A DNA stretch of 64,000 bases from Candidatus Nanohalarchaeota archaeon. Lineage in GTDB: Archaea > Nanohalarchaeota > Nanosalinia > Nanosalinales > Nanosalinaceae. Position 1 is the first letter of the stretch; each line of letters begins with the position of its first letter. This document shows positions 9,950-45,769 of this stretch, in pieces. The position numbers and the translations under genes are program-made. Where the stretch lies: contig JALDAJ010000001.1 in assembly GCA_022729235.1 (NCBI GenBank), positions 192,001-256,000 of the forward strand, written 5' to 3'. The notes under the pieces were generated by a model. The model searched no databases, was not told where the DNA came from, and saw only the letters and a list, made by a program, of their open reading frames with translations.

Positions 9950-10324
9950 ATGCAAGTTACAATCGGAACACAGGACGGCGAAACGTTTCAAACCGAAGTA
10001 GACGACGCTTCTCAACTCACAGGAAACAAGATAGGAGACGAGATAGAAGGCGGAATCGTCGGACTCGACGGCTACACCCTCAGAATTACAGGTGGAAGCG
10101 ACAGCGACGGTTTCCCGATGAGAGAAAGCATCGACGGAACCGGCAGAAGACGCGTTCTAATAGGAGAAGGCTCCGGAATCAACGAGGAAGAAGACGGAGT
10201 CAGGAGAAGAAAATCCGTGAGAGGAAACACCATTTCCGAAGACATCCAACAGCTCAACACGCAGGTAGTAGAAGAAGGAAGCAAAAGCGTCGAAGAACTA
10301 CTCGGTGAAGAAGACGAAGAATGA
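9950..10324 (+). CDS. rps6e: 30S ribosomal protein S6e
   Basis: ITGGSDSDGFPM, RRRKSVRGNTI. Confidence 0.95.
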   Translation: MQVTIGTQDGETFQTEVDDASQLTGNKIGDEIEGGIVGLDGYTLRITGGSDSDGFPMRESIDGTGRRRVLIGEGSGINEEEDGVRRRKSVRGNTISEDIQQLNTQVVEEGSKSVEELLGEEDEE

Positions 10325-10380
10325 TTCGAAAATCGGAGATTTTCTACATCACACAGAAACAACGAGGTAGTTTCGAATGA
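10319..10380. repeat. Junction hairpin insertion, GAATGA duplicated at 56-nt offset
   Basis: GAATGA at 10319 and 10375; contains GAAAATC-GGA-GATTTTC hairpin and GAGGT upstream of the new ATG. Confidence 0.7.
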
Positions 10381-11564
10381 CAGGGACACCCGAAGTAAAC
10401 ATCGGACTGGTAGGTCACGTAGACCACGGGAAGACCACCTTGACGCAGGCTTTATCCGGTAAATGGACGGACGAGCACTCTGAAGAACTGAGAAGAGGTA
10501 TCACTATCAGGATTGGTTACGCCGACATAACATACTACGAAAACAGTGACGGCGAACTGAACGTCGACGGAGACGGAGAAGAAGTAAGAACCGTTTCACT
10601 TGTTGACGCACCAGGGCACGAAACGCTGATGGCAAACGTTCTTTCTGGAGCCGCCATAATGGACGGCGCAGTACTGCTTATCGCGGCGGACGAGGAATGC
10701 CCGCAACCACAGACACGGGAGCACCTAGCCGCGCTCGACATGATAGGTATCGACAACATCGTCATAGCGCAGAACAAGATAGACCTCGCCGATGAGGATC
10801 AGGTAAAGGAGAACTACCAGCAGATACAGGAGTTCGTGGAGGGAACGGTCGCGGAGGACGCGCCAGTTATCCCTATAAGCGCCCAGCACGGCGTCAATAT
10901 CGATGCACTACTGGAAGCTATCGACAGGGAAATCCCTACCCCCGAGAGAGAACCTGGCGCGGAGCCGAAGATGCTTGCCGCGCGCTCGTTCGACATCAAC
11001 AAGCCAGGCACGCCTATAGAAGACATCAGCGGAGGCGTAATCGGCGGAAGCCTTGTCCAGGGAGAACTGGAAGAGGGTGAAGAAATCGAGCTGAGACCTG
11101 GTAAAAGAGATGGTAAAAACTGGGAGCCGGTAACGACAACTATAGAAAGCATCATGCAGGGCTCCGAACAGACCGGTAAAGGTGATCCCGGCGGTCTACT
11201 CGCGATAGAGACCGGTCTGGACCCGTCCATGACTAAATCAGACGGTCTCGCAGGCAATGTCCTCGGACGTGAAGGAGAACTTCCGGAGACTACAAATCAG
11301 CTGGAGCTGGACGTTGACCTCATGGAAGCTCTCGTAGGGGCTGAGGAAGAGCAGGAGATAGAGAACATCAAAGAGAAGGAGACTCTGATGCTTAACGTAG
11401 GTACCCAAAAAAGCGCTGGAGCAGTTACACAGGCCGGAAAAGACGTGAGAATACAACTCAAGGTACCTGTCTGCGCAGACGAAGGAGACAGAGTGGCGAT
11501 TTCCCGGCAGATAGGCTCTCGATGGCGTTTAATCGGTCATGCGCAGATAAAGAGCCTTGAATAA
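10377..11564 (+). CDS. eif2g: Translation initiation factor aIF2 gamma subunit
   Basis: GHVDHGKT, RGITIRIGYA, DAPGHE, QNKID, RSFDINKPG, WRLIG. Confidence 0.97.
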   Translation: MTGTPEVNIGLVGHVDHGKTTLTQALSGKWTDEHSEELRRGITIRIGYADITYYENSDGELNVDGDGEEVRTVSLVDAPGHETLMANVLSGAAIMDGAVLLIAADEECPQPQTREHLAALDMIGIDNIVIAQNKIDLADEDQVKENYQQIQEFVEGTVAEDAPVIPISAQHGVNIDALLEAIDREIPTPEREPGAEPKMLAARSFDINKPGTPIEDISGGVIGGSLVQGELEEGEEIELRPGKRDGKNWEPVTTTIESIMQGSEQTGKGDPGGLLAIETGLDPSMTKSDGLAGNVLGREGELPETTNQLELDVDLMEALVGAEEEQEIENIKEKETLMLNVGTQKSAGAVTQAGKDVRIQLKVPVCADEGDRVAISRQIGSRWRLIGHAQIKSLE

Positions 11565-11606
11565 CCACGCGGTTTTTTATAACCCAAGTATCTAGTTGAT
11601 GGTTAT

Positions 11607-25081: not shown

Positions 25082-25378
25082 ATGTCAGACGGAAACAAGT
25101 CACAGAAAGCGGAAGAATTCCCGAAGAGAGGGAACTCCTTCGAGGGAGAGGTAGAGTCCACGAAGATGGACAAGTCCGCGACAGTAAGATGGGCGTATTC
25201 TGAAGAAGTCCCGAAGTATGAGCGTTACGAGAGAAGAAATACCAAGATAACCGTTCACGTCCCGGAAGATATCGAAGTAAGCGAGGGCGACCATGTAAAA
25301 GTTGTCGAGACCCGCCCGATTTCCAAGACCAAAAGCGCCGTGATAACAGAAATAATTCAAAACGGTGACGAGCAATGA
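25082..25378 (+). CDS. rps17: 30S ribosomal protein S17
   Basis: RGNSFEG.V.S.KMDK, PKYERYERR, ETRPISKTK; TATA TTTAAAAG at 25048. Confidence 0.95.
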   Translation: MSDGNKSQKAEEFPKRGNSFEGEVESTKMDKSATVRWAYSEEVPKYERYERRNTKITVHVPEDIEVSEGDHVKVVETRPISKTKSAVITEIIQNGDEQ

Positions 25379-25435
25379 AGCTTTCCGCAGGAAAGACTTC
25401 TCGCAGAAATCACCCGAAAGGTGATTTCGAGTGAA
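25364..25435. repeat. Junction hairpin insertion, SD+start duplicated at 56-nt offset
   Basis: GGTGA-N6-ATGAA at 25364 and GGTGA-N6-GTGAA at 25420; TCGCAG-AAATCACC-CGAAA-GGTGATTT-CGA hairpin. Confidence 0.8.
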
Positions 25436-25829: not shown

Positions 25830-25893
25830 AATCATGACAAATGATTTTACGGCTCGCAGAAAATCTCTGATTTTCGAGTGGTGTAAAAAATGA
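25821..25893. repeat. Junction hairpin insertion, ATG duplicated at 56-nt offset
   Basis: GTGGTGTAAAATCATGA and GTGGTGTAAAAAATGA flank an inverted copy (ATGATTTTAC) and TCGCAGAAAATC-TCT-GATTTTCGA. Confidence 0.85.
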
Positions 25894-26651: not shown

Positions 26652-27314
26652 ATGGCACACGATAAACGACTCCCGGCACCAAAGCATTACCCTATCAAGA
26701 GGAAGGAGACTAAGTACATCTCCACTATAGAGGGTTCAAGAAGCCGTGAAAACGCTGTTCCCGCGGTAGTAGTGCTGAGAGAGATTCTGGGATACGCAGA
26801 GAACGAAACAGACGCGAAAAAGATAGTACAGGACCGCGAACTACTTAGAAACGGAGAACCGGTAACCGACATCAGGCAGGGTATCGGAATCCTTGATACC
26901 GTGGAGCTTCCAAAAACGGAGGAGGCTTACCGCGTACTGAGAAGCGGTCAAGACCTGAGATTTGTACCTGTAACAGATGAAGAGAAAGTCGTCACAAAAA
27001 TAGTAGGTAAAGATTCTGAAGGCGACGGTTACGTCTACCGGCTTCATAACGGAGAGAATTACAGGACGGATGACGAATACGCGACAGGTAACACGCTCAT
27101 CTTCAACTCCTCGGTAACCGAAGTAGAACTGGAAGAAGGAGCGCAGGTAGTAGTTATAGACGGTAAACACGCCGGTCAGATAGCAGAGCTTAAAGAGATA
27201 AGCGAACACCGCATGAACCCGGACATCGGCGTTATAGAAGCTGATACAGAGTTTGAGACACAGCTTAAAAACCTTGTAGCAGTGGAAAAGGTCCAGCTAG
27301 GTGAAGAACAGTGA
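26652..27314 (+). CDS. rps4e: 30S ribosomal protein S4e
   Basis: KRLPAPKHYPIKRK, LHNGEN, GKHAG. Confidence 0.95.
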   Translation: MAHDKRLPAPKHYPIKRKETKYISTIEGSRSRENAVPAVVVLREILGYAENETDAKKIVQDRELLRNGEPVTDIRQGIGILDTVELPKTEEAYRVLRSGQDLRFVPVTDEEKVVTKIVGKDSEGDGYVYRLHNGENYRTDDEYATGNTLIFNSSVTEVELEEGAQVVVIDGKHAGQIAELKEISEHRMNPDIGVIEADTEFETQLKNLVAVEKVQLGEEQ

Positions 27315-27364
27315 ATGCTGAAAGCGTTCACTTCGCAGAGAATCACAGGGTGATTTTCGAATGC
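27310..27364. repeat. Junction hairpin insertion, GAATGC duplicated at 46-nt offset
   Basis: AGTGAATGCT/AGCGTTCACT hairpin then TCGCAG-AGAATCAC-AGG-GTGATTTT-CGA and new ATG. Confidence 0.8.
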
Positions 27365-27870
27365 AGGAGATGAAGGAAATCCAGATCGAAAAAATAGTAG
27401 TTAACGCAGGGGCAGGAGAAGTAGGAGATGAGGTCGAGAAATCAGTAAGGCTCCTGGAAAAGCTTACCGGCAAACAGCCAGTAAAGACAGAGTCCCGTCG
27501 GGAAGCCAAGACTTTCGGTCTTAGAGGCGGACTCGAGATAGGTGTTAAGATAACTCTTAGAGGAGAAGAGGCAAGAGAATTCCTGGAAAAAGTACTTCCA
27601 GCTGCTGACAACGAAATCGATGCCTCAAGCTTTGACGGCAACGGCAACTTCGCGTTCGGTATCTCAGAGTACATCGACGTACCAGGAGTAGACTATGACG
27701 GAGATATCGGTATGAGAGGGTTCGAAGTAGTTGTAAACCTTGAAAGACCAGGATACCGTGTAAAGCGGCGCGACTACAAGCCTTCAGAAGTCGGAAAAGA
27801 CCACGAGGTCTCCGATGAAGAAGCAAAGGAGTTCGTTGAAGAGGAACTTGGTGCAGAGGTGACAAACTAG
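27361..27870 (+). CDS. rpl5: 50S ribosomal protein L5
   Basis: [29 protein letters not shown]. Confidence 0.97.
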
Positions 27871-31017: not shown

Positions 31018-31077
31018 ATGACGAAAATCAGAGATTTTCTAAATCACCAGGAACTCAAAGGTGAGTTTCGGTAATGA
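31018..31077. repeat. Junction hairpin insertion, ATGA duplicated at 56-nt offset
   Basis: GAAAATC-AGA-GATTTTC plus GAACTCA-AAGG-TGAGTTT hairpins; new AGGTGA SD. Confidence 0.75.
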
Positions 31078-31861: not shown

Positions 31862-31865
31862 GGTA

Positions 31866-34056: not shown

Positions 34057-35022
34057 ATGACCGATAAACACTGGTACACCCGGGAAGCATCTGAACCTTC
34101 TGAAGACTACGGGACGAGACCTGAGAAAAGATCTATAGAAGAGCTTCTGGAACAAGGGATTTTGATAGTTGATAAACCGTTCGGACCGACAAGTAACCAG
34201 GTATCAGGCTGGATAAAGGAGGAGCTCGATTTAAAGAAGACAGGTCACTTCGGAACACTTGACCCGAACGCGACAGGAGTCCTACCGATAGGTGTCAACC
34301 GTGGAACCCGGATACAGGAAGCGCTTGCAAAAGCCCGGAAAGAATACGTTTTCGAGGCAGAGCTGGGCGAAGAGAAGCCAGAAGACGATATACGAGAGGC
34401 AGTAAAGAGCTTTGAAGGAGTCAACAAACAGGTACCTCCAGAAAAGAGCGCGGTCAAAAGAGAGGAACGTGAACGCGAAGCATACGAGACCGAACTGCTT
34501 GAAGTCCAGGAGAATCAAGTTCTTGGACGGGTTAGATGTGAATCAGGGTTCTACGTGCGCGTCATGATAGAACAGCTCGGAGAGAAACTTGACACATCGG
34601 CAGAGATGACCGAATTACGGCGGACAAAACAGGGAGAACTCAGCGAGGAAGACACCGCAACACTGCAGGATATAGTCGATGCATACAACTTCTACCGCAA
34701 GGAAGGTAAGGAAGAGGAAATCAGGAAAGTTTTACATCCCATCGAGAGGGCGGTCGCACACATGCCGAAAATCGTTATCAAGGATACCGCAGTCAACGCT
34801 GTCGCAAATGGTTCCGACCTCGGATCAACCGGCATCTCAAAGCTGCAGGACGGCATCCAGGAAGGCGATAGAGCGGCAATCATGACACTGAAAGGCGAAC
34901 TCGTGGCGCTCGCAACCGCGCAGATGACCTCAGAAGAGATGTACGACCAGAAAGGTACAGCAGCCACACTGGAAAGCGTTCACATGAACCCAGAAATCTA
35001 TCCGAAAAAGTGGAAACGGTAG
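34057..35022 (+). CDS. cbf5: H/ACA pseudouridine synthase Cbf5
   Basis: DKPFGPTS, GHFGTLDPNATGVLP, ELRRT, PUA domain, YPKKWK. Confidence 0.96.
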   Translation: MTDKHWYTREASEPSEDYGTRPEKRSIEELLEQGILIVDKPFGPTSNQVSGWIKEELDLKKTGHFGTLDPNATGVLPIGVNRGTRIQEALAKARKEYVFEAELGEEKPEDDIREAVKSFEGVNKQVPPEKSAVKREEREREAYETELLEVQENQVLGRVRCESGFYVRVMIEQLGEKLDTSAEMTELRRTKQGELSEEDTATLQDIVDAYNFYRKEGKEEEIRKVLHPIERAVAHMPKIVIKDTAVNAVANGSDLGSTGISKLQDGIQEGDRAAIMTLKGELVALATAQMTSEEMYDQKGTAATLESVHMNPEIYPKKWKR

Positions 35023-35055
35023 AGGAATTATTAGTATGGAGGATAAAATCTTGAT

Positions 35056-35568
35056 ATGAAACTGATAATAACAGACGAGGAACCTGACCTCGACGGCGCA
35101 GCTTCCTCCTACGCGTATGCTGAATTTCTCAAAAAGAACGATGAAAAAGCAGTAGGAGCCGTATTCGGCGACCTGAACGAACAGACGGAACAGATACTTG
35201 AAGAACTTGACGAGGAGATACAGGACGCCTCTTACTACCTGTACTCCGCGGACGAAATCATCATCGTAAGCGCGAGCAGTATGGACCATATCTCACGGCG
35301 CATATCCCCTGACAAAGTCGTAGAAATCATCGACCACGAAGACGTCAGCAAGGAAGACTTCCCGGAGGCAGATATCGAGATAGAAGGCGTCAGCACCGCA
35401 TCAACCATTATCGCGGAGAAATTCCGGGACAACGACATCGAGGTAAGCAAGGGCGCAGTCACACTACTACACGCGGCGATAACTTCCACCATTGAAGAAC
35501 TGGATGACGAAGAAGTAACCGACCGCGACCGGGAAATAGTCGAGTGGCTGGAAGAACAGAAAGAATAA
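35056..35568 (+). CDS. Truncated, degenerate DHH/PpaC-like phosphoesterase N-domain
   Basis: PDLDG..S, IIDHE (for DHH), STASTIIAE, T.RD; no DHHA2 domain. Confidence 0.65.
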   Translation: MKLIITDEEPDLDGAASSYAYAEFLKKNDEKAVGAVFGDLNEQTEQILEELDEEIQDASYYLYSADEIIIVSASSMDHISRRISPDKVVEIIDHEDVSKEDFPEADIEIEGVSTASTIIAEKFRDNDIEVSKGAVTLLHAAITSTIEELDDEEVTDRDREIVEWLEEQKE

Positions 35569-35633
35569 CTCCTCTCCAGCAGGGTAGCTTATAAGATTCT
35601 TAGTCAAGCTCTTCCTCATAGTGGCTTCCATAA

Positions 35634-35780
35634 GCCGGGGTGACTGAGTCTGGACGAAAGTGCCAGCCTGGAATAGCCGGCTCCTCTTTGAGGTGACGGC
35701 TTGAGAAGAGCTCTTCTCTTCGATCCCAGTCAGCTGGTGACCCATACCGGGTCTCCTGGGTTCAAATCCCAGCCCCGGCG
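35634..35780 (+). tRNA. tRNA-Ser(GGA) with 58-nt intron (35674-35731) at 37/38
   Basis: GCCGGGG/CCCCGGC acceptor, CCAGC/GCTGG anticodon stem, long variable arm, GTTCAAATC; central helix CTGG/CCAG with bulges AA|T and TC|A. Confidence 0.93.
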
Positions 35781-35908
35781 TCTTCGACGCCTTGCTGGAT
35801 TTGATTATCCTCACATCTCTCACGAGAAGTTCAGGGTTCAAATCCGAGAAATCCAGTTCTGGTTTCGAGTTGCAGAAAATCTTTTGATTTTCGAACCCAT
35901 ATCCGGCG
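35758..35908. repeat. Hairpin insertion(s) with partial duplication of tRNA-Ser 3' end
   Basis: GGGTTCAAATCC at 35758 and 35834, inverted copy GCTGGATTTGA at 35794, GCAGAAAATC-TTTT-GATTTTCGA at 35872. Confidence 0.7.
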
Positions 35909-35962
35909 CTTATCTAATATTCAGCCGGTTTTATAACCGAACTTCACCAAATCTTGTCCATC

Positions 35963-36811
35963 ATGAAAAAATCTATCTTACTCGCAACACTTGTACTCGC
36001 TATAGGCGTGGGATTCGCGAGTGCACAGGACGCGGAGACTCAGGAAGAACCTCAACCTGACGAGGAGGTACCTGAAGAAGTAAGTACAGGATGGTTTACA
36101 CCTGACTCAGCGCTCTACGGGCTCGAAACTGCCTGGGATAACACAGGTATGGCTCTAGGAGTCAAGTCTCCTGGCGATGTAGCCCAGAAGAGAGCTGCCG
36201 AAGCTCAAGTAATGGCTGAAGAAGGAAACTACGGGGCAGCACAGAGGGCGGCGGAAGGACTTGAGAACGCCGCATCAAGAGCCGGAGATGACGATATCGA
36301 AGGTATTGAACAGGCAACATCGACACTTGAAAGAGTGATCGAAGATGCGCCTGAAGAAGCCCTTGAAGGCCTCCAGACAGCGATGGAGAACGTGGCGGAA
36401 GCGGGTCCGGAGGATTTAGAAATCGAACCAGGACCACCGGGAGATGAACCAGGTGAAGACGTAGAACCCGGACAGCCGGATGACGAGCCTCAACCAGGTG
36501 ACCAACCGAATGGTGACGCTGAAGCAGGCGGTGAAGAAACTAGAGAGATAGTAGTAGAGAACGACGGGATGTCATTCGAAACAGGAGAAATCGAGGTTGA
36601 AGAAGGAGAAGAAGTAACTATCACATTCGCCAACCAGGGCGGTATCCACGACCTGAGAATCCCTGAACTTGAAGTAGGAACAGAGGAAATCTCAGGCGGA
36701 GAACGAGCGTCCTTCACCCACACCTTTGACGAACCAGGAACTTACGAATTTGAGTGCAGCGTCGGCAACCACGCCGAACAGGGTATGACTGGAGATATAG
36801 TAGTTGAGTAA
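35963..36811 (+). CDS. Secreted protein: helical N-domain, Pro/acidic linker, C-terminal cupredoxin (halocyanin-like)
   Basis: Signal peptide, TPDSALYGL (DUF5667-like), type-1 copper ligands HDL...CSVGNHAEQGM. Confidence 0.8.
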   Translation: MKKSILLATLVLAIGVGFASAQDAETQEEPQPDEEVPEEVSTGWFTPDSALYGLETAWDNTGMALGVKSPGDVAQKRAAEAQVMAEEGNYGAAQRAAEGLENAASRAGDDDIEGIEQATSTLERVIEDAPEEALEGLQTAMENVAEAGPEDLEIEPGPPGDEPGEDVEPGQPDDEPQPGDQPNGDAEAGGEETREIVVENDGMSFETGEIEVEEGEEVTITFANQGGIHDLRIPELEVGTEEISGGERASFTHTFDEPGTYEFECSVGNHAEQGMTGDIVVE

Positions 36812-36869
36812 ACCCTGTTCCTGGGACTCCTTCCTTTATTTTTACTACTTGCGTCTTGAAGCCAGTTCT

Positions 36870-38237
36870 TTAATCTATATAGAGAGTTTTCCTATTCACG
36901 AACTCTTTGATGCCTTCCTCTCCAAGCTCTCGACCGTAGCCAGAGTTCTTCACTCCGCCAAAGGGCAGTCTAGGATCGGATTTTACTAGTTCGTTAACAA
37001 ATACATTCCCTGCTTCTAGCTCTCTACTAAGTCTTTCCGCCCTTTCCAAGTCTTGTGTCCATATTGAGGCGCCTAGACCGTATGGAGTTCTATTTGCAAT
37101 TTCAACTGCTTCTTTTTCGGAAGAAACCGTAAAGACTGAAGCTACAGGTCCGAATAGTTCTTCTTCATAAGCCGGTGTTTCCTCCGGGATATCTCTTAAA
37201 ATCGTGGGTTCGTAGAAGAATCCGTTTCTATCCGGTATGCTGCCGCCGGTAACCACTTCAGCTCCTGCTTTAACTGATTCTTCAACCTGAGCGGCAAGTT
37301 CATCTCTCAGGTCTTTCCTTGCTATAGGGCCTATATCTACATCTTCGTTCGCCGGATTTCCGATTTGCATGGATTCAAACTGATTCTTAAGCATCTCCAG
37401 GCATTCATCAGCGATGTCCTCGTGCACTATTATTCTTTTTGCGGCGATACAGCTCTGTCCGTTGTTAAGAAGCCTTGATGTCGTGGCTACCTCACATGCT
37501 TTCTCTATATCTGCATCTTCAAGAATTATGAATGGGTCGCTGCCGCCAAGTTCTAGAACCGTCTTCTTCAGGTTTTCTCCCGCCTGTCTTGCCACCGCTT
37601 TTCCAGCTCCCGTGCTTCCTGTCAGAGTTACTCCTCTGACCCGGTCATCTGCTATAATTTTGGAGGCTTGATCGTTTGTCACGTATATATTCTGGAACAC
37701 GCCCTCAGAGAACCCTGCGTCTTTAAAGATTTCTTCTATCTTCGCAGCAGTTTTCGGGACATTTGGCGCATGTTTCAATATACCTACATTCCCTGCCATC
37801 AGGTTTGGTGCGGCGAAACGCATTACCTGCCATAGAGGAAAGTTCCAGGGCATTATCGCGAATACCGGTCCTAGAGGCTCATATCTTACCGTGCTTTTCT
37901 GCGCATCTGTAGGTATATTCTTCTCCGATAAGTAAGACTCAGCATATGATGCGTAGTGTTCACATACCCACGCACATTTCTCTACCTCTGATTTTGCAGA
38001 ATTTATGGGTTTGCCCATCTCCTCTGTCATTGTTTCAGAGAGTTCCTTCGAGTTCTCTCTAAGTAAATCAGCTACTTTTCTCATTTTCTGCCTTCTTTCT
38101 TCAAACCCTGTCTTTCTCCATTCTTGGAACGTTTCCCAGCTTTTCTCCAGGACTTGTCTCACTTCTTGATCTGGAGCAGTTTCAAACTCCTCTATATTTT
38201 CCTCCGTAGCCGGGTTAACTATCCTGTATTTTGACAT
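36870..38237 (-). CDS. NAD(P)-dependent succinate-semialdehyde dehydrogenase (Sad/GabD-like)
   Basis: IMPWNFPLWQVMRFAAP, LTGST, LELGGSDP, NNGQSCIAAKR, EELFGP. Confidence 0.9.
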   Translation of the reverse strand: MSKYRIVNPATEENIEEFETAPDQEVRQVLEKSWETFQEWRKTGFEERRQKMRKVADLLRENSKELSETMTEEMGKPINSAKSEVEKCAWVCEHYASYAESYLSEKNIPTDAQKSTVRYEPLGPVFAIMPWNFPLWQVMRFAAPNLMAGNVGILKHAPNVPKTAAKIEEIFKDAGFSEGVFQNIYVTNDQASKIIADDRVRGVTLTGSTGAGKAVARQAGENLKKTVLELGGSDPFIILEDADIEKACEVATTSRLLNNGQSCIAAKRIIVHEDIADECLEMLKNQFESMQIGNPANEDVDIGPIARKDLRDELAAQVEESVKAGAEVVTGGSIPDRNGFFYEPTILRDIPEETPAYEEELFGPVASVFTVSSEKEAVEIANRTPYGLGASIWTQDLERAERLSRELEAGNVFVNELVKSDPRLPFGGVKNSGYGRELGEEGIKEFVNRKTLYID

Positions 38238-38248
38238 ATCTCTCCACT

Positions 38249-39889
38249 TCAAGTTGGACAAATCATTTCTCCAAGTTTTTCAGTCAACCTGTGATTTTCC
38301 TCGGGATCCACGGGAACCTCGATTACATCTACTTCTCCACTGTCCAGCGACTTCTCCAGTATTTCTGTAAGCTGGCAGGGCGATTCAACTCTGTGACCTT
38401 GAGCACCATAGCTCTCCGCCAGCTTCACGAAGTCAGGATTGTCGAACTCTGCGCCGAACTTGTGACCGTATTCATCCACCTGTTTCCATGTTATCGCACC
38501 TAATTCCTGATCATTGAATACCAGAAGCGTCAAATCAAGATTTAGACGTGTGGCTGTTTCAAGCTCTTGGGCGTTCATAACAAAACAGCCATCCCCTATT
38601 GTAGCTACTATATTCCTCTCAGGTTCCGCCAGCTTTGCACCTATAGCTCCAGGAAGCGCTATCCCCATAGTAGCCAGTCCGTTTGAAACAATGAACGTGT
38701 TGGGTTCATAGGTAGGGTATAACCTGCTCATCCAGAGTTTATGGGCTCCCGTATCTGTTATAAGCACGTCATCATCCGCCAGATGTTCTCTAAGATCATG
38801 CACTATTCTCTGGGGCTTCATAGGAAGTGAATCATCATTTGTGTACTTGTTAAACTCGTCTTCTATAAACCTCTTCAGGTCTCTCGAATATTCAGCATCT
38901 TTTCCTTCTATATCCTCCTCTTTCAAAGTCCTCAAGGATTGTCTAATATTCCCTACCATCTGTGCTGAAGGCCTGTAATGTTTGTCGACTTCCGGAATCC
39001 GTGAATCAATATGAATGATTTCCTTATCTCTATCAGGATTCCATTTTTCAGGATAATATTCTATGTAATCCGTACCTACGGCGATAATAAGGTCGGCCTT
39101 TTCTATACCACACATCACATAATCCCGGTTCTGAAGACCGATTGTACCGATAGAAAGGTCTTCTCTAGCCGAAATAGCTCCTTTACCCATGAAAGTAGTC
39201 ACGACAGGAATATTATTCTGTTTTACAAACTGTGTGAGCTCCTCAGACGCGCCGGAACGTATAACGCCGTTACCAGCTATTATATACGGATTTTCAGAAT
39301 CCTCTATTAGTTCAGCTACTTCTCTGACAGTTTCAGCGTCCGGTTTTGTATCGCTGTCAAGTCCGGGTTTCGGCAGCAAAGGTTCGCCAATATCCTTGTT
39401 TTCCAGGACATCCGCGGGAAGCTCTATATGAGTGGCTCCCGGTTTCTCAGACTCAGCAATCTGAAAGGACTTCCTGACTATTTCAGGTATAGCCTCCGGT
39501 TTTTCCACGGACTTATTGAACTGGGTGACTTCACTTAGAATATTTACGACATCAATATACTGGTGTGATTCCTTGTGCGTCTTATCTCTTTCTAGTTGAC
39601 CCGTTAAAGCTACTAGCGCGCCTGCATCCAGGTTTGCGTCAGCGACAGCTGTAATAAGATTCGTGGCTCCCGGTCCAAGAGTTGAAAGACATACCCCTGC
39701 ATCTCCTGTCAGCCTTCCATAAACATCCGCCATGAAAGCCGCTCCTTGCTCATGCCTTGTTAAAACAAGATCGATATCGGAGCGAGAAAGTTCGTCCATT
39801 ATACTCGTGGTCTGTTCACCCGGCAAACCAAAGATGTATTCCACTCCTTCATTTTCTAATGCCTTGATGAGAAGCTCAGAGCCTCTCAT
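38249..39889 (-). CDS. ThDP-dependent acetolactate-synthase-like enzyme (candidate 2-oxoglutarate decarboxylase)
   Basis: FGLPGE, RHEQGAAFMADVYGRLTG, TLGPGATN, SNGLATMG, GDG..N motif; coupled to SSADH, no small subunit. Confidence 0.85.
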   Translation of the reverse strand: MRGSELLIKALENEGVEYIFGLPGEQTTSIMDELSRSDIDLVLTRHEQGAAFMADVYGRLTGDAGVCLSTLGPGATNLITAVADANLDAGALVALTGQLERDKTHKESHQYIDVVNILSEVTQFNKSVEKPEAIPEIVRKSFQIAESEKPGATHIELPADVLENKDIGEPLLPKPGLDSDTKPDAETVREVAELIEDSENPYIIAGNGVIRSGASEELTQFVKQNNIPVVTTFMGKGAISAREDLSIGTIGLQNRDYVMCGIEKADLIIAVGTDYIEYYPEKWNPDRDKEIIHIDSRIPEVDKHYRPSAQMVGNIRQSLRTLKEEDIEGKDAEYSRDLKRFIEDEFNKYTNDDSLPMKPQRIVHDLREHLADDDVLITDTGAHKLWMSRLYPTYEPNTFIVSNGLATMGIALPGAIGAKLAEPERNIVATIGDGCFVMNAQELETATRLNLDLTLLVFNDQELGAITWKQVDEYGHKFGAEFDNPDFVKLAESYGAQGHRVESPCQLTEILEKSLDSGEVDVIEVPVDPEENHRLTEKLGEMICPT

Positions 39890-39936
39890 AATCGAATCTC
39901 TCCTCCCGGAGATTTCTGCCTATCCATACTAATGTG

Positions 39937-39957
39937 TAAAAATGTTGCACATTTTTA
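39937..39957. promoter_or_regulatory. 9-bp inverted repeat TAAAAATGT-TGC-ACATTTTTA, candidate operator
   Basis: Perfect palindrome between the HTH regulator and the decarboxylase/SSADH pair. Confidence 0.55.
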
Positions 39958-39961
39958 AACA

Positions 39962-40270
39962 TTAAAGTCGTTCGATTGCCTCCCTCTTTTCCTCCATCCA
40001 CAAATCCAGTTCTTTACTGGCTTTCTCCCTGAGACTCTCAGAATCCATTGAATAGACATGTTCCCTCCCATTTCTTGAAACCTTAACCAAACCTGCTTTC
40101 TTAAGTCCTGACAGGTATCTCTGAACAGTGCTTCTGTCAAGATTGATACTATCAGATAGCTCTTTAACCGTCATCTCCTCTCCACAAAGCTCCATCAGGA
40201 TATCTACATCCCTACTTTTCAGCTTGAAAACAACACTCAAGAGCTCCTCTAACTCGGGGGAACACTCCAT
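39962..40270 (-). CDS. Winged-HTH transcriptional regulator (TrmB/ArsR-like)
   Basis: MTVKELSDSINLDRSTVQRYLSGLKKAGLV. Confidence 0.85.
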   Translation of the reverse strand: MECSPELEELLSVVFKLKSRDVDILMELCGEEMTVKELSDSINLDRSTVQRYLSGLKKAGLVKVSRNGREHVYSMDSESLREKASKELDLWMEEKREAIERL

Positions 40271-40474
40271 ACATGTAAATAAAGAAACTATACTTTTATT
40301 CTTGAAACGTATCACAGCCAGCCAGAAGCCCGAATCCCTTTAACACGACCTTAATCAGTACCTGATTAATAGCTACTAACACGCGATTTCTGCAGAAGCC
40401 GTAAGAGAAACGAGTGTTCAAGGGACACACACAACATTAATAAACTTTGCGGTAACAACAGTTCTCTTGTAACC

Positions 40475-40681
40475 ATGACAGAATGCGAAATCTGTGGTAG
40501 AACCGAGAAAGAACTCAGCGAAGAGTTCGGACGCGAGATCAAGGTTAGCGAGCATGAAGGCATGAACAAGTGCCAGAAATGCCTCAGCGAGTACCAGAGA
40601 GAGACAGGGGAAGAAAAAGTCGAAGACCTTGATAACGAGCTCGCGGAAAGTAAGGACTGGAAAGACGTCGTAACGGCGTAA
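40475..40681 (+). CDS. Small zinc-finger-like protein
   Basis: CEIC...CQKC, acidic tail. Confidence 0.65.
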   Translation: MTECEICGRTEKELSEEFGREIKVSEHEGMNKCQKCLSEYQRETGEEKVEDLDNELAESKDWKDVVTA

Positions 40682-40712
40682 CATTTCTATTTCTTCCTTC
40701 CAAAACTTAGAC

Positions 40713-41063
40713 ATGCCACAGCCAGAAAACTATCTCAGAACCATCTACGAACTCTCCGAGAAAGGAGAGAGTTCTACAGCCAACTCCGAAGTAGCTGAGG
40801 CTCTAGACGTATCAGACGCAAGCGCCTCGGAAGCCATACAGAAACTGGAGGAGCGAAATCTAGTGTGCAGAGCACCCTACAAAGGCATTACCCTGAGCCC
40901 ACCCGGGAAAAAGCAGGGAGAAAAACTCTCCAGAAAATACAGCGTACTTGTAAAATTCTTCGAATGGTTAGGAGTTGAAAACCCTGAAAAAGAAGCTGTT
41001 GAAATAGAACACGCGATTTCCAGTGATGCCACGGAAAAGATAGAAGAACTCGTCAACAGATAA
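40713..41063 (+). CDS. DtxR/MntR-family metal-dependent regulator
   Basis: ENYLRTIYEL, VAEALDVS.ASASE, PYKGITL, EIEHAIS. Confidence 0.9.
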   Translation: MPQPENYLRTIYELSEKGESSTANSEVAEALDVSDASASEAIQKLEERNLVCRAPYKGITLSPPGKKQGEKLSRKYSVLVKFFEWLGVENPEKEAVEIEHAISSDATEKIEELVNR

Positions 41064-41150
41064 CATGTCAACGATATCAGTCCTCCAGGAACTAGTCCCC
41101 CAAGAATAGACTGTTTTCTTAAGTGTTGCCTTCTTTCAGTAAAATGTACG

Positions 41151-41223
41151 AAACAGCCCCCTGGTGTGAACGCAGATACGAGATCTGCTTGAAGCACACA
41201 GGAAGCAAATAGCCCCCTGGTGT
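41151..41223. repeat. Duplication of tRNA-Gln 5' end at 56-nt offset
   Basis: AGCCCCCTGGTGT at 41155 and 41211 flanking a GCAGAT-ACGAG-ATCTGC hairpin. Confidence 0.8.
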
Positions 41224-41343
41224 AGCGGTCAATCATAGCGGCCTTTGGCACCTCAAGTTCTCGTCAGGGAACGAGGACTTTGAAGAGCTCTGCTCTTCAG
41301 GTGAAGATAGCCGCTGACCCAGGTTCGAATCCTGGGGGGGCTA
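41211..41343 (+). tRNA. tRNA-Gln(TTG) with 60-nt intron (41249-41308) at 37/38
   Basis: AGCCCCC/GGGGGCT acceptor, GCGGC/GCCGC anticodon stem, GTTCGAATC; BHB: CTTT/GAAG helix, bulges GG|C and AT|A, outer ACCT/AGGT. Confidence 0.93.
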
Positions 41344-41346
41344 ACC

Positions 41347-41628
41347 ATGGCATCAGAAGTACGTGCATCCCACATCCTGGTCGACAGCAAGGAAAAAGCA
41401 CAGAACATAAAAGAACAGCTGGACAACGGAAAAAGCTTTGAACAGCTGGCAAAGGAGGCAAGCGAATGTCCCTCATCGGAGAAAGGAGGAGACCTCGGAT
41501 TTTTCGGAAAAGGTGACATGGTCAAGCCGTTCGAGAGGAAGGCGTTCAGCATGGATGTCGGCGACGTTTCCGGACCTGTCAAGACAGAGTTCGGGCATCA
41601 CCTGATCAAGAAGACTGATGAACGCTGA
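41347..41628 (+). CDS. ppiC: Single-domain parvulin peptidyl-prolyl isomerase
   Basis: RASHILV, SECPS..KGGDLGFF.KG.MVKPFE, VKTEFG.HLI. Confidence 0.92.
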   Translation: MASEVRASHILVDSKEKAQNIKEQLDNGKSFEQLAKEASECPSSEKGGDLGFFGKGDMVKPFERKAFSMDVGDVSGPVKTEFGHHLIKKTDER

Positions 41629-41678
41629 ACGCTGTCCACCCTTTATAAAATTTAGAGTGAAGTTGAGTGGTACGGGTT

Positions 41679-42170
41679 ATGTCTGAGACAAAAGAAGTTG
41701 TAAGAATTGCAAGAACAGATATCGACGGCACCAAGCCTGTAGCCAAAGCTATAACCTCACTGCAGGGTGTCGGCGAGACTTACGGTCACGCAGTATCACA
41801 GGTAATAGATGTAGATACAGAGACCAAGATAGGAGACCTTAGCGATGAAGAAATCGATAAAATCGAGGATACTATAAGAAGCCCGGAGGAAGCCGGAATC
41901 CCTGAATGGCTCAGAAACAGAAGAAAAGATAGGGAAGAAGGAGATGACCAGCACCTGATAGGTTCGGATCTTGAACTGAAAGAAGAATTCGATATCAGGC
42001 GCCTGAAAGAAATCGACTCGTACAAGGGCTGGAGACACGAAATCGGACTACCTGTTAGAGGACAGAAGACCAAGTCCTCGTTCAGATCAGGTTCAAAAAT
42101 CGGTGTTTCACGCGCACGCCTAAGAGAAGAAGCTTCCGAAGGCGGCGGAGACGACGAAGGTGAGGAGTAA
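41679..42170 (+). CDS. rps13: 30S ribosomal protein S13
   Basis: RIARTDIDG, WL.NRRKD, SYKGWRH..GLPVRGQKTK. Confidence 0.96.
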   Translation: MSETKEVVRIARTDIDGTKPVAKAITSLQGVGETYGHAVSQVIDVDTETKIGDLSDEEIDKIEDTIRSPEEAGIPEWLRNRRKDREEGDDQHLIGSDLELKEEFDIRRLKEIDSYKGWRHEIGLPVRGQKTKSSFRSGSKIGVSRARLREEASEGGGDDEGEE

Positions 42171-42192
42171 TGCACGGACAAGGTGATTTTGA

Positions 42193-42783
42193 GTGGTAAA
42201 AAAACTGAAGAAGCAGTACGAGACTCCTAACGAAGGATGGAACCAGGAAAGAATTAACAGAGAAATAGAGCTTATGGAGGAATACGGACTGAAGAACAAG
42301 GAAGAAGTCTTCAAAGCCCAGAGCCAGCTAAGAAGCCTGAGACGCGAAGCCCGTAACCTGGTAGCATCGGAAAACGAGAAGGAAAGGAAAGATCTTATTG
42401 AGAAAGCCAACCGGCTAGGGATTGTAAAAAAGGATGCAGAGCTTGAGGATATACTATCCCTAAGTGTTACAGACTTCCTTAACAGGAGACTCCAGACCGC
42501 AGTAAACAGGCGAGGATATACAGACACAGTGCAGGAGGCACGACAGCTTGTTGTTCACGGTCACGTTTACGTCAACGGACAGAGAGTAAACGTCCCGAGC
42601 TACATGCTTACACAGGAGGAAGAAAAAGGTATAGAGGTAATACTGCCTGAACCAGAAGATGAAGAAACAGAGCAGGAAGAAGATGAAGCCGAAGCAGAAA
42701 CAGGTGAAGAAGAGGAAACGGAAGAAAATGAAGAAGCAGAGGAAAAAACTGACGAAGAATCCGAAACGGAGGAAGAAGAATGA
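42193..42783 (+). CDS. rps4: 30S ribosomal protein S4 with acidic tail (GTG start)
   Basis: [27 protein letters not shown]. Confidence 0.96.
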
Positions 42784-43160
42784 CTAAAGGAATAGTTAAC
42801 ATCTACTCAAGCTTCAATAACACGATAATCCACATAACTGATGCTACAGGAGCTGAAACAATTTCCCGTATATCATCAGGCATGGTTACCGACAAAGGTC
42901 GGCTCCAGGGAGAACCGTTCCCTGCTATGAAGGCAGCGAAACAAGCAGTAGAGGAGGCACTGGAGAAAGGCATAGAAGAAGTAGACATCCAGGTAAGAGC
43001 ACCTGGAGGACAGAAACAGAAGATGCCCGGGAAAGGCGCACAGCCAGCTATCCGTGCGATTTCACGAAGCGAAATCGATGTCGGAAACATCGAAGACGTT
43101 ACACCCGAACCACACGACGGCGTAAGAGCCAAAGGCGGTAAGAGAGGTCGAAGAGTATGA
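42780..43160 (+). CDS. rps11: 30S ribosomal protein S11
   Basis: [28 protein letters not shown]. Confidence 0.97.
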
Positions 43161-43729
43161 ATATCGAAGTTGAAACAGAAGAAGACGGCGTCATGGAACT
43201 AAGACTTGAAAACGGGAACGCCGCAGTAGCGAACACTCTAAGACGCACAATGATGGCTAAAGTACCAACCCTCGCGGTACAGCACCTGGATATCGTGAAG
43301 AACGAGTCAGGTATTTTCGATGAAGTCCTGGCTAACAGGGTCGGACAGGTACCATTTACTATACCCGATAACGTTGAAGAAGGCGATACCGTGAACATCG
43401 CCCTGAAACAGGAAGGACCCGGAACAGTACTCGCTGAAGATCTCAAAACAGACAACGACGAGGCAGAACCTGTCAACCCAGAAGCTGTATTAGTCAGCCT
43501 GAAAGAAGATCAGGCACTGGAATTCGAGGCAGAAGCACAGCTAGGACGCGGTAAGGACCACACCAAACACCAGGGAGGAACAATCGGCTACGAGAAAGTC
43601 GATGAAGGAGAATTCCTCTTCAGGATAGAATCAACTTCCGGCTACAGCAACGAAGAACTCGTGGAAGCTGCGATTCAAGAAGTCAAGCAGGAACTTGATG
43701 AGTTCGAAGAAGCAGTTGAAGAGCTGTAG
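43157..43729 (+). CDS. rpoD: RNA polymerase subunit Rpo3 (D), short form
   Basis: [37 protein letters not shown]. Confidence 0.93.
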
Positions 43730-43814
43730 AATTTTTCTCTCATTCTGGATAACCTACCTCCCCCACTTTAAACTCTTCTACATTAATTCTCCTCTAGAGC
43801 CAGCTGTATCCAAC

Positions 43815-43965
43815 GCCGGGGTGGCCGAGTGGCTAAAGGCGCGGGACTTAAGTTCCTCAAGTTCTCCGACAGGGAGAACGAGGACCTAGAAGCGAACGCA
43901 CGTGAGCTTCGTGAGGATATCCCGTCCCCGCAGGGGGTGCGCGAGTTCAAATCTCGCCCCCGGCA
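43815..43965 (+). tRNA. tRNA-Leu(TAA) with 66-nt intron (43853-43918) at 37/38
   Basis: GCCGGGG/CCCCGGC acceptor, CGGGA/TCCCG anticodon stem, long variable arm, GTTCAAATC; relaxed BHB. Confidence 0.9.
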
Positions 43966-44043
43966 AATAATTTTTTCTGGCGAGATTTAATAAGCGGCAG
44001 AAAATCTCCGATTTTCAACCGAGTTCAAATCCCTGCCCCGGCA
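43943..44043. repeat. Duplication of tRNA-Leu 3' end (78-nt offset) with inverted copy and GCAG hairpin
   Basis: GAGTTCAAATC...CCCCGGCA at 43943 and 44021; AAATCTCGCC/GGCGAGATTT; GCAGAAAATC-TCC-GATTTTC. Confidence 0.8.
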
Positions 44044-44085
44044 TTTTCAGTGCTTACAAGCTGTAAGAACAGACCTTCCGAAAAG

Positions 44086-44101
44086 TTTAGGCAAGCCTAA
44101 A
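44086..44101. promoter_or_regulatory. DtxR/MntR-like operator TTTAGGC-AA-GCCTAAA
   Basis: Perfect palindrome resembling the DtxR-family TTAGG..GCCTAA box; similar sequence overlaps the start of the DtxR-family gene at 40696-40720. Confidence 0.5.
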
Positions 44102-44121
44102 AAAGGTTGTACTCTAGTGCA

Positions 44122-44376
44122 ATGTTTGTTATGTCCTATAGTAAAGATTTCTCCCATCTTGAAGACACAGTGAAAACCTGCCTAGGAGACGGTTATGGAG
44201 TCAGTATAGGCACCAATAATGATAATTTTGAGGTCTACGTGACACCAGCAGACGGGCTAAGCAGCGAAGAGTTGGAAAAAATTGAAGAAGACGTACGTCG
44301 AGCTATCAATCCAGGAGCATACTGCGACAGTCACAGACTTGAGGAGTTCTATAGAGTGAGAATCCGCGCCCCATAG
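44122..44376 (+). CDS. Small hypothetical protein (paralog-like to 21704..22012)
   Basis: LGDGYGVSIGTNNDNFEVYV motif. Confidence 0.6.
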   Translation: MFVMSYSKDFSHLEDTVKTCLGDGYGVSIGTNNDNFEVYVTPADGLSSEELEKIEEDVRRAINPGAYCDSHRLEEFYRVRIRAP

Positions 44377-44446
44377 CTCTCAAACCATGACACCAGCGCA
44401 ACCGATTTATAAAGTTTTATCTCAACTGAATGACTACAGCCATCAG

Positions 44447-44510
44447 TGGTCTCGGTCGAACCTCTGGTTCGAGCCGTTGAGAAGATCTCTGATCTTCGAA
44501 CCGCGAGGTG
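44447..44510. repeat. Double-hairpin element in rpl18e leader
   Basis: TCGAACC-TCT-GGTTCGA and GAAGATC-TCT-GATCTTC followed by GAGGTGA SD. Confidence 0.7.
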
Positions 44511-44518
44511 AATACATC

Positions 44519-44869
44519 ATGGATAAAAACGCAGACCCAACCAACCCAGTACTTATCGAAACTCTAGATGTTCTTGAGGAGCAGGAAGCTCCTATATGGA
44601 ACTCAGTTAGAGAAAACCTTGGAAAAGTTAACCGTCAACGACCTGAAGTCAATATATCGGATATCGAAAGGATCGCAGAGGACGGAGAAACAGTTGTTGT
44701 ACCTGGTAAAGTACTTGGAGCCGGAAGACTGACAAAGAACGTTACAGTCTCCGCATTCGACGTTTCAAAAGGTGCAAGACAGAAAATCGAAGAAGACGGC
44801 GAGTTCATGTTTATCCAGGATTTAGTTGAGGAAAATCCCGAAGGAGAAGGGGTGAGAATAGTAAAATGA
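44519..44869 (+). CDS. rpl18e: 50S ribosomal protein L18e
   Basis: TNP.L, EVNIS.I, VVVPGKVLGAG. Confidence 0.95.
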   Translation: MDKNADPTNPVLIETLDVLEEQEAPIWNSVRENLGKVNRQRPEVNISDIERIAEDGETVVVPGKVLGAGRLTKNVTVSAFDVSKGARQKIEEDGEFMFIQDLVEENPEGEGVRIVK

Positions 44870-45303
44870 CTGATACAGAAAATGTGGTAGTGATCAACGC
44901 TGAAGGCAAAGTAATCGGAAGACTGGCGTCAGAAATCGCGAGAAAAGTTAGAGACGGAGAAGAAGTAAGAGTTGTGAACTCTGAAAAAGTAGTTATCTCA
45001 GGCGATGAAGAAGAGATAAAAGCTGATTACAGACAGAGACACGAGAGAGGCGCAAGACACGACGGTCCTTACTTCCCAAAGAGACCTGACAAGATACTGA
45101 AGAGAACAGTCAGAGGCATGCTACCGTACAAGAACCAAGAGGGTCGAGAGGCATTCAAAAGAGTCAAGACCTACCTGGGTGTCCCTGAAGAGTTCGAAGA
45201 CTACGAAGAAGTTGAAGAGGTCAAGGAAGGAGACGAGCTGAAGAACCGGAACTATGTAAAACTTGGCGAAGTATCCAAGCACATCGGGTGGACTCCTAGA
45301 TGA
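44866..45303 (+). CDS. rpl13: 50S ribosomal protein L13
   Basis: IGRLAS, GPYFPKRPD.I.KRTVRGMLPYK. Confidence 0.96.
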   Translation: MTDTENVVVINAEGKVIGRLASEIARKVRDGEEVRVVNSEKVVISGDEEEIKADYRQRHERGARHDGPYFPKRPDKILKRTVRGMLPYKNQEGREAFKRVKTYLGVPEEFEDYEEVEEVKEGDELKNRNYVKLGEVSKHIGWTPR

Positions 45304-45707
45304 GCGATGAAGCATTCGGAACCGGGAAAAGAAAGACAGCGAAGGCTAGAGCAAGCATAGAAGAGGGCGAAGGAACACTTAGGATTAACTCCAAGCCCCT
45401 GCACACGCTGCCCAAGATGTCCCAGCAGAGGATTAAAGAACCGCTTACCATCGCTGGCGAAGAAATAATAGAAGAAATCAGCATAGAGGTCAATAGCAAC
45501 GGGGGCGGAGTACAGGGACAGGCAGAAGCCATCAGGATGGCTATCGCCCGCGCACTAGTAGAATACACAGACAGCGACGAACTCGAAAACAAGTTCCGTG
45601 AATACGACAGGAACATGCTGGTCGAGGACCCACGAAGAACTGAGACCAGAAAACCCTCACAGTCGAGCAAAGGAGCCCGACACAAACAACAGAAGTCCTA
45701 CAGGTGA
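45300..45707 (+). CDS. rps9: 30S ribosomal protein S9
   Basis: GKRKTA.A, GGG..GQAEA, YDR..LV.DPRR, QKSYR. Confidence 0.97.
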   Translation: MSDEAFGTGKRKTAKARASIEEGEGTLRINSKPLHTLPKMSQQRIKEPLTIAGEEIIEEISIEVNSNGGGVQGQAEAIRMAIARALVEYTDSDELENKFREYDRNMLVEDPRRTETRKPSQSSKGARHKQQKSYR

Positions 45708-45769
45708 TCAGCAGTGCATTTCACTGAAATGGACTTCGCAAAAACTCACGGAGGTGAGTTTTGAGTGCA
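45702..45769. repeat. Junction hairpin insertion, AGTGCA duplicated at 51-nt offset
   Basis: AGGTGA...GTGCA twice; hairpins CATTTC-ACT-GAAATG and TCGCA-AAAACTCAC-GGAG-GTGAGTTTT-GA. Confidence 0.8.

Follow-up and report, generated by a model that had tools for sequence, protein, structure and literature searches.

Small palindromes are tolerated in translated RNA when they keep the reading frame open, as the palindromic elements of Rickettsia illustrate. Here we analysed a stretch of 64,000 nucleotides (the window, positions 192,001 to 256,000 of contig JALDAJ010000001.1) from the single-contig genome of a Candidatus Nanohalarchaeota archaeon (1,027,595 bp, 48.5% G+C, 95% complete), in which short hairpin inserts occupy several junctions of translation operons. 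We hold with moderate confidence that these inserts belong to a non-autonomous hairpin-repeat family located at stop/start overlaps, and that the copies that persist do so as relay cistrons keeping the flanking genes translationally coupled. The Rickettsia elements are translated within the host protein, whereas each insert here forms a separate mini-cistron with a start and a stop of its own, overlapping both ends.

The hairpin and double-hairpin elements of mitochondria (sponges, Allomyces, the GC clusters of yeast) resemble the family in having one to three hairpins, in scattered, lineage-specific invasions with loads that differ among close relatives, in lacking a transposase of their own and in that some copies stay in transcripts and genes. 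They differ in being organellar and without any sequence relation to it. In Neurospora mitochondria palindromes flank tRNA genes, and the available portion of that account describes no relay frame and no regeneration of start codons or tRNA 3' ends (PMC2800124).

[quoted passage not shown] According to PMC3733652, GTAG and CGTC tags define the REP super-families; here, in contrast, the flanks are AG...CG, the stems are A/T-clamped and covarying, and copies sit on start codons and carry a Shine-Dalgarno (SD) sequence, a start and an open frame. Because neither a RAYT (no Y1 transposase in 31 of 31 nanohaloarchaeal genomes) nor a GTAG tag was found, the family is not a REP/RAYT system. [quoted passage not shown] It differs from them in that its internal hairpins, not only its termini, are conserved. 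Since there is no flanking duplication of fixed length (2-23 nt) and no related autonomous insertion sequence was found with the six Pfam families searched in its own genome, it is probably not a classical MITE family either.

Archaeal tRNA introns with a bulge-helix-bulge (BHB) motif share the module with the family, and tRNA 3' ends are duplicated next to it as they are at attachment sites of elements integrated into tRNA genes. In PMC3293823, mobile-element integration is proposed to have created tRNA fragments and introns in Caldiarchaeum. In contrast to such systems, the junction inserts give no BHB signal above chance, and the DNA between a tRNA and the copy of its end measures 40-115 nt and holds no recombinase; membership of a BHB intron family is unsupported by the tests run. 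Ordinary termination-reinitiation overlaps use the same motifs (ATGA, GTGA, TAATG) and are enriched between genes for complex subunits, the difference being that here two consecutive overlaps are joined by a mini open reading frame (mini-ORF). Our literature searches on nanohaloarchaeal repeats and tRNA introns, MITEs of DPANN archaea and coupled gene junctions, whose scope did not extend to supplementary repeat annotations, brought up no account of these elements, of overlaps linked in this way or of relay mini-ORFs that repeats create.

Hairpin inserts and their relay frames

Six junction spacers and one remnant, for which an original prediction from the same DNA had described a shared layout, are present in the window where it had placed them. 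The spacers of the six full inserts measure 46-60 nt and that of the remnant, between S13 and S4, 22 nt; minimum-free-energy folds place two hairpins in every full insert (six of six). The upstream start codon of that prediction is present as well, and it opens a mini-ORF that spans the whole insert, a feature not noted before. In all six inserts and in the remnant, this open mini-ORF links the upstream stop to the downstream start:

10321..10380, + strand: S6e/aIF2-gamma insert with a 19-codon relay mini-ORF (spacer 10325-10376); ATG 10321 overlaps the S6e TGA (10322-10324) and TGA 10378-10380 overlaps the aIF2-gamma ATG (10377), giving ATGA at both ends; hairpin 1 is an antisense module (core 10329-10343)
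25375..25434, + strand: S17/L14 insert with a 19-codon relay mini-ORF (spacer 25379-25430); ATG 25375 overlaps the S17 TGA (ATGA at the 5' end) and TGA 25432-25434 overlaps the L14 GTG at 25431 (GTGA at the 3' end); hairpin 2 is a sense module (25405-25429) whose 3' arm contains GGTGA
25834..25893, + strand: L14/L24 insert with a 19-codon relay mini-ORF (spacer 25830-25889); ATG 25834 lies 4 nt past the L14 TAA and TGA 25891-25893 overlaps the L24 ATG at 25890 (ATGA at the 3' end); in hairpin 1 (25826-25850) the end of L14 pairs with its own inverted copy, followed by the module (25858-25876) and an 11-nt repeat (25878-25888) of the L14 end (original 25822-25832)
27311..27373, + strand: S4e/L5 insert (spacer 27315-27360, module 27337-27359); a 20-codon mini-ORF in the GTG frame (27311-27373) overlaps the S4e TGA (GTGA at the 5' end) as well as an ATG in the L5 frame at 27370 (ATGA at the 3' end); an ORF in the ATG frame (27315-27353) ends 8 nt short of the L5 ATG at 27361
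31018..31074, + strand: S5/L30 insert with an 18-codon relay mini-ORF (spacer 31017-31073); ATG 31018 lies 1 nt past the S5 TAA, and the last base of TAA 31072-31074 is the first of the L30 ATG (31074; TAATG at the 3' end); hairpin 1 is an antisense module (core 31024-31038) and hairpin 2 (31041-31070) holds GGTGA
45714..45764, + strand: S9/RpoN insert with a 16-codon relay mini-ORF (spacer 45708-45764); GTG 45714 lies 6 nt past the S9 TGA and TGA 45762-45764 abuts the RpoN GTG at 45765; hairpin 2 (45740-45762) holds GGAGGTGA
42170..42199, + strand: S13/S4 remnant (spacer 42171-42192), reduced to the 3' arm with the SD, the GTG start and a frame of nine codons that runs from a TAATG overlap into S4

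The hairpins share a module that generalises to AG-AA(stem)-loop-(stem)TT-CG. The consensus quoted in the original prediction was right in that both orientations occur, and too narrow in that the stems covary: near-matches carry AAGATC/GATCTT, AAAACC/GGTTTT, AAACTC/GAGTTT and other pairs. What does not vary is AG, a stem that opens with AA and closes with TT, and CG. In a 36-sequence alignment the invariant flanks are AG (5') and CG (3'), GCAG being common and not invariant. Composite inserts start with CGAAAAYC and finish with GRTTTTCG, that is, with terminal inverted repeats as judged by eye. At 4/6 junctions (S17/L14, S4e/L5, S5/L30 and S9/RpoN) the last hairpin carries the GGTGA SD of the downstream gene in its 3' arm. 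Inspected by eye, the module lacks the GA pairs, boxes and spacing that a kink-turn, a C/D box or a promoter would need, and these readings were set aside.

The module is far more frequent than expected by chance. In its exact form the core AAAATC-N3-GATTTT was counted four times in the window, where 100 dinucleotide shuffles gave an expectation of 0.00, and 12 times genome-wide. With a strict descriptor (AG, a stem of at least 6 starting with AA, a loop of 3-6, CG) we counted 63 copies genome-wide, against 4, 4, 1, 3 and 2 in five whole-genome shuffles. Of these, 50 are intergenic, compared with 0.52 +/- 0.73 and a maximum of 3 in 100 Markov-1 simulations of intergenic DNA, an excess of about 100-fold; the intergenic fraction, 12.3% of the genome, is based on crude ORF-based gene calls made in this analysis. 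Adjacent copies in opposite orientation form arrays, such as those at 158748/158775 and 288501/288527/288553 in genome coordinates. We also built a covariance model, R1, from 36 module copies, partly those of the window; its specificity rests on E-values, genomes of the phylum alone were scored with it and its counts per genome are lower bounds. It matches the S9/RpoN insert weakly (E = 0.19). The covariation counts of alignment A1 are circular, the sequences having been picked by a pairing descriptor, and are not used as evidence. Tallies of orientation, of inverted ends and of two of the bridged inserts mentioned below were read by eye from printed rows.

Open relay frames are also more frequent than in shuffled sequence. 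Among all same-strand junctions with a strict module, 15/16 are bridged by a mini-ORF, compared with 6.48 +/- 1.78 and a maximum of 11 in 300 shuffles of the interior, the same generous limits being applied to real and shuffled spacers. The single miss, AtpF/AtpA, has an open frame of 29 codons closing in a TGATG overlap, with its start beyond the limit; S4e/L5 and S9/RpoN fail the strict descriptor and yet are bridged. In the spc operons of relatives, 12 of 16 spacers of 35-160 nt are bridged by a scripted rule, two further ones at slightly wider limits by eye, and the last two have no hairpin. Copies read hairpin 1 in three different frames, and the C-terminal residues that recur are the translated SD-spacer-start. 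Because three frames cross the same hairpin, what is conserved is the nucleotides and the openness of the frame and no peptide; among the insert mini-ORFs compared we found neither a conserved peptide nor regulatory codons, as would mark a leader peptide or a regulatory upstream ORF.

In Haloferax volcanii and Escherichia coli an intergenic distance of about 20 nt almost abolishes coupling by termination-reinitiation, according to PMC10666635, and an insert of about 50 nt should therefore uncouple the genes that it separates. The arrangement of the inserts suggests how this may be avoided. An insert of 45-100 nt, with one to three AG-AA(stem)-loop-(stem)TT-CG hairpins of a family spread across Nanohaloarchaea, would have landed at the stop/start overlap of two coupled genes. 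The ancestral start at the upstream stop would then open a frame of 9-35 codons through the hairpins, whose stop overlaps or abuts a new start, often GTG, preceded by the element's SD (GGAGGTG or GGTGA), which occupies the loop and 3' arm of its last hairpin. A ribosome could pass from gene to mini-ORF to gene in two steps of termination and reinitiation, melting the hairpin that hides the SD, so that coupling would be kept despite some 50 nt of extra RNA. From this layout we conclude that surviving copies are probably 'translationally transparent', that the mini-ORFs are likely to be translated and that selection may filter insertions for this property. The original prediction had suggested a co-option to break coupling; with open frames that overlap or abut both neighbours, a layout expected to keep it, broken coupling seems the less likely reading.

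Stop/start overlaps are enriched between genes for subunits of a complex, as stated in PMC10666635 and PMC6728339. Beyond the window the family occupies NusG/L11, L11/L1, L1/L10, RpoH/RpoB, S28e/L24e and L2/S19, as well as Top6B/Top6A, KH-protein/Top6B, PheRS alpha/beta, AtpF/AtpA and two gene pairs whose function is unclear. NusG, RpoH, RpoB, S28e and L24e are what we take these proteins to be from reading their sequences, without a tool. Occupied junctions join complex subunits in general (ribosome, RNA polymerase, topoisomerase VI, PheRS, ATPase), and the confinement to translation operons that had been supposed does not hold.

Of the genes around the inserts, S6e, aIF2-gamma, S17, L14, L24, L5, S5, L30, S9, RpoN, S13 and S4 are confirmed by Pfam; the protein between L24 and L5 has weak KOW and RS4NT matches and is called S4e from its position. 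In a comparison of aIF2-gamma the closest named relatives were metagenome-assembled genomes labelled Candidatus Nanohaloarchaea. L24 (25890-26645) is unusually long, with 251 aa, and the presumed S4e gene lies at 26652-27314. The S17 reading frame contains a module-like hairpin in codons 3-9 (25025-25040; weak R1 match, E = 0.04), and a spacer of 204 nt lies 5' of S17. One further copy in the window stands in front of a gene:

44440..44520, + strand: leader of the gene 44387/44520-44869, presumed from its operon position to be L18e, with two hairpins including a sense module (core 44482-44496), then GAGGTGA and ATG

Gain and loss among relatives

Comparison with relatives, which are non-independent samples, showed that occupancy is sporadic (G001 is a genome of the same genus; G004 to G018 denote other nanohaloarchaeal relatives). 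Among genomes of the order S17/L14 is occupied at 3/28 loci and L14/L24 at 6/27, the others being overlaps or spacers of at most 15 nt. The S17/L14 junction is tight in G001 and G009, and relatives such as G009 show there the ordinary junction that deletion of the insert had been predicted to restore. Among the 31 nanohaloarchaeal loci listed, the S6e/aIF2-gamma insert is found in this genome alone, and it is missing at the G001 locus L074. S4e/L5 is occupied here and in G007 among 13 genomes compared, S5/L30 here and in G005 among 12 genomes in which both genes were located, and S9/RpoN carries inserts of the module type here, in G010 and in G015 among 29 loci. At S13/S4, where 5/26 loci with both genes are occupied and 21/26 spacers measure at most 19 nt, G001 has a full two-hairpin element of 55 nt, and G004, G005 and G015 are occupied too; this supports the reading of the short version in the window, which keeps an element-type GTG start, as a remnant.

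The same-genus genome has none of the inserts at S6e/aIF2-gamma, S17/L14, L14/L24 and S4e/L5, and none was seen at S9/RpoN; its contig stops before S5/L30. It has inserts at L24/S4e and L3/L4, both empty here. Across the spc operons of 12 relatives, inserts of 45-100 nt stand at junctions that differ from genome to genome, including the following:

G001: L24/S4e
G005: S14/S8, S8/L6, L32e/L19e, S5/L30
G007: L14/L24, S4e/L5, L5/S14, L6/L32e
G014: L5/S14
G011: S17/L14
G015: L30/L15

Very similar copies (86-93% identical) stand at non-orthologous junctions in different genera: our S4e/L5 insert matches that of G005 at L32e/L19e in 46/51 positions, G001 L24/S4e matches G005 S14/S8 in 53/59 and our S9/RpoN insert matches G005 S8/L6 in 41/44. 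At the orthologous S9/RpoN junction, 44/51 aligned bases are identical between our genome and G015. Some inserts are longer, with about 100-141 nt and at least three hairpins (G005 S5/L30, locus L030; G005 S13/S4, L190; G006 L14/L24, L010), and keep open relay frames where checked. Because their last hairpin matches the shorter versions, as in the 100-nt insert of G005 at S5/L30, whose last hairpin is near-identical to ours, hairpins seem to be gained or lost as units.

R1 found at least 0-37 matches per genome in 31 genomes, with at least one match in 26/31, three clustered matches in G001 lying in the S10 operon; at a stricter threshold at least one match remained in 48/70 genomes of the phylum, with large differences inside genera. 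Empty sites, turnover and similar copies at different junctions support a family that has probably been gained and lost at the DNA level. The miniature inserted-element family of the original prediction is upheld in this respect, relatives having empty sites and the module exceeding expectation about 100-fold.

Contigs from three metagenomic DNA runs of one study, which drop rare variants, showed no joint at any insert over window positions 25300-45299, and the probable source run covers the inserts without differences. Contigs of the source metagenome break at the tRNA-Ser trailer (35815-35870, duplicated elsewhere) and inside L24 (26435-26555); repeats appear to fragment short-read assemblies.

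Copies in tRNA introns and trailers

The module is not restricted to protein-coding junctions. ARAGORN predicted 35 tRNAs, of which 20 have introns of 30-203 nt; the descriptor found modules in 5/20 introns, all in sense orientation (5/5). The introns of Arg (three), Leu-taa, Thr-cgt, Gln and Lys tRNAs have a common first hairpin followed by an AG-AA...TT-CG hairpin, and they form a family of introns that seems akin to the intergenic repeats. Nine tRNAs are followed by another 12 modules, all no more than 150 nt downstream; 11 of the 12 have the sense orientation. The window contains the following:

35781..35909, + strand: trailer of tRNA-Ser(gga) (tRNA 35634-35780), in the order inverted T-arm piece, hairpins, sense module (core 35876-35891), partial copy of the tRNA 3' end
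43966..44043, + strand: trailer of tRNA-Leu(taa) (tRNA 43815-43965), in which a T run is followed by an inverted T-arm piece, by the module (core 44001-44015) and then by a 3'-end copy (44019-44043) that matches the tRNA's own 3' end 13/16
43853..43918, + strand: intron of tRNA-Leu(taa), a member of the intron family with the conserved first hairpin and then an AG-AA...TT-CG-type hairpin

Such trailers end with a renewed piece of the tRNA. A copy of the 3' end (at least 13/16 of the last 16 nt of the tRNA) stands 40-115 nt downstream of 11/35 tRNAs here and 7/25 in G001, as compared with 12/1190 and 5/600 mismatched pairs of tRNA and trailer, respectively; upstream copies were found at none of the 35 tRNAs here and the 25 in G001. 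Between tRNA and copy there is a T-rich stretch, an inverted copy of that tRNA's T-loop and 3' half of the T-stem, and hairpins, one to three in number. Inside the T loop the direct copy starts, merging there with the 3' flank of the module. Several copies in G001 are perfect over 22-23 nt and belong to tRNAs whose orthologues here are empty (Ala-ggc, Met). The L14/L24 insert has the same order at a small scale: the end of L14, an inverted copy, the module and the 11-nt repeat of the L14 end. Since the tRNA trailers and L14/L24 repeat the ends that they follow, 'target-regenerating' is a fair description of the family and reaches beyond start codons.

Elsewhere in the genome, the trailer of tRNA-Ser(tga) is near-identical to that of tRNA-Ser(gga). 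In contigs of two metagenome runs (depths 122 and 601, compared with about 15 for the genome studied) position 41248 is joined to 41309, which skips exactly the 60-nt intron of tRNA-Gln; these contigs are probably intron-less tRNA-Gln genes of more abundant organisms of the samples.

Competing explanations and the route of spread

Several of our results weigh against a mobile family whose surviving copies act as relays. Under the generous limits about 6.5 of 16 spacers are bridged even when shuffled, and for the full set of 319 same-strand spacers of 30-130 nt bridging is in modest excess (32 against 18.0 +/- 3.3). At L2/S19 and in the L3 leader, the copies common to our genome and G001 differ by compensatory changes in stems or by changes in the loop only, and a selected RNA structure therefore fits them as well as a selfish element does; the sense bias in tRNA introns and trailers hints at selection at the RNA level. 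Furthermore, Y1_Tnp (PF01797) was found in none of 31 genomes, our own included, and the direct repeats flanking the inserts vary from 2 to 23 nt.

It is conceivable, though unlikely, that the hairpins are cis-acting RNA selected by the host, such as a device hiding the SD until the upstream partner of a downstream subunit has been translated, a stabiliser of the mRNA or a processing or termination signal, and have spread through their usefulness. This proposal partly overlaps with the relay interpretation, which allows later domestication. The sequestered SD, the compensatory changes between orthologous copies, the paired changes by which our S4e/L5 hairpins differ from those of G005 at L32e/L19e, the sense orientation in introns and trailers and the location of occupied junctions between complex-subunit genes would all be in line with it. 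Its difficulty is that occupancy is sporadic, most relatives having tight overlaps at the same places and G001 differing at most junctions, that 5/31 genomes lack any R1 match, and that the benefit of an added step is unclear where a direct ATGA overlap already couples the genes.

Excision at the RNA level, as BHB-type introns cut by the tRNA splicing endonuclease or in some different way, would make the mature mRNA tight again, a weaker alternative in the original prediction that we now consider very improbable. The module does occur inside 5/20 tRNA introns, several copies have by eye a 4-bp helix and a 3-nt CAG bulge beside it, and removal of an insert would restore an ordinary junction. 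In a scan for BHB motifs, which place both splice sites in 3-nt bulges 4 bp apart, however, 0/13 junction inserts matched the strict motif and relaxed matches stayed at the level of shuffles; the scan is a blunt test, since it recovered 17/20 tRNA introns in the relaxed and only 3/20 in the strict form. Moreover, on our reading, cleavage at the CAG bulge and its symmetric counterpart would take away the SD together with the start and put the downstream gene out of frame, and there would be no point in keeping relay frames open in RNA that is excised.

Nor do we give much credence to the mini-ORFs being real genes for small peptides between ribosomal protein genes: they are open, start near SD-like ends of upstream genes and have recurring C-terminal residues, but these residues are the SD-spacer-start, hairpin 1 is read in three frames, and the frames are 9-35 codons long and sporadic in close relatives. 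Least credible of all are ordinary spacers with chance SD/anti-SD hairpins or internal promoters, which some hairpin-free, promoter-like spacers of 35-65 nt in relatives recall (G011 L15/SecY, G018 L30/L15 and several at S9/RpoN), but which do not account for the excess of the module, for near-identical copies at different junctions or for its presence in untranslated tRNA introns and trailers.

The link to REP/RAYT systems drawn in the original prediction finds no support in the Y1 HUH search, whose control was positive in 6/14 named genomes. In relatives the searches covered two families, PF01797 and PF07282: TnpB occurs in 5/31 genomes, two of which are without any module, and its presence does not track module counts. 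Six Pfam families were searched in our own genome, which has no RVT_1, Cas1 or TnpB match above the cut-off, one DDE_Tnp_1 match, a fragment, and two tyrosine recombinases. The DDE_Tnp_1 fragment lies in an AT-rich non-coding island of 1.4 kb (genome 31000-32400) with a module copy at its edge; no module-like ends were seen at the fragment or the island (genome 31.0-32.4 kb).

The flanking repeats measure 2-7 nt at most junctions, 11 nt at our L14/L24 and 22-23 nt at the tRNAs of G001, and they cannot be read as target-site duplications because they overlap functional stop/start motifs of the ATGA type. As the repeats vary and no transposase was found, we conjecture that copying depends on homology or microhomology rather than on a fixed staggered cut. 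A tentative possibility is transposase-free, homology-guided copying, hairpin-primed or by template switching, that rebuilds the functional end it interrupts and may have been co-opted to make one subunit strictly dependent on another. At coupled genes it would leave the old start in front and provide a new SD and start after the insert; in the case of tRNA genes the tRNA would stay intact and the insert would end with a fresh copy from T loop to discriminator, preceded by an inverted copy, in the order target, inverted target, module, target.

The stop/start overlaps of ribosomal protein genes and the 3' ends of tRNAs are among the least tolerant sites of a streamlined genome, and yet they are the preferred homes of this repeat family. 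If the conjecture on copying is true, 'self-healing' insertion of this kind would account for the spread of a repeat into the most constrained sites that a symbiont genome of 1 Mb has, and a possible co-option would be a portable device that makes translation of the downstream subunit strictly dependent on the upstream one. If the relay interpretation is true, nature would offer a simple way to separate two coupled genes by some 50 nt of structured RNA with their coupling retained, which would be useful for the design of operons. For the Nanohaloarchaea, which are almost without transposases, our findings add a dynamic repeat family that may serve as a strain marker, and the family may also lend itself to the study of mobility without a transposase and of how tRNA introns and the repeats that flank tRNAs arose.

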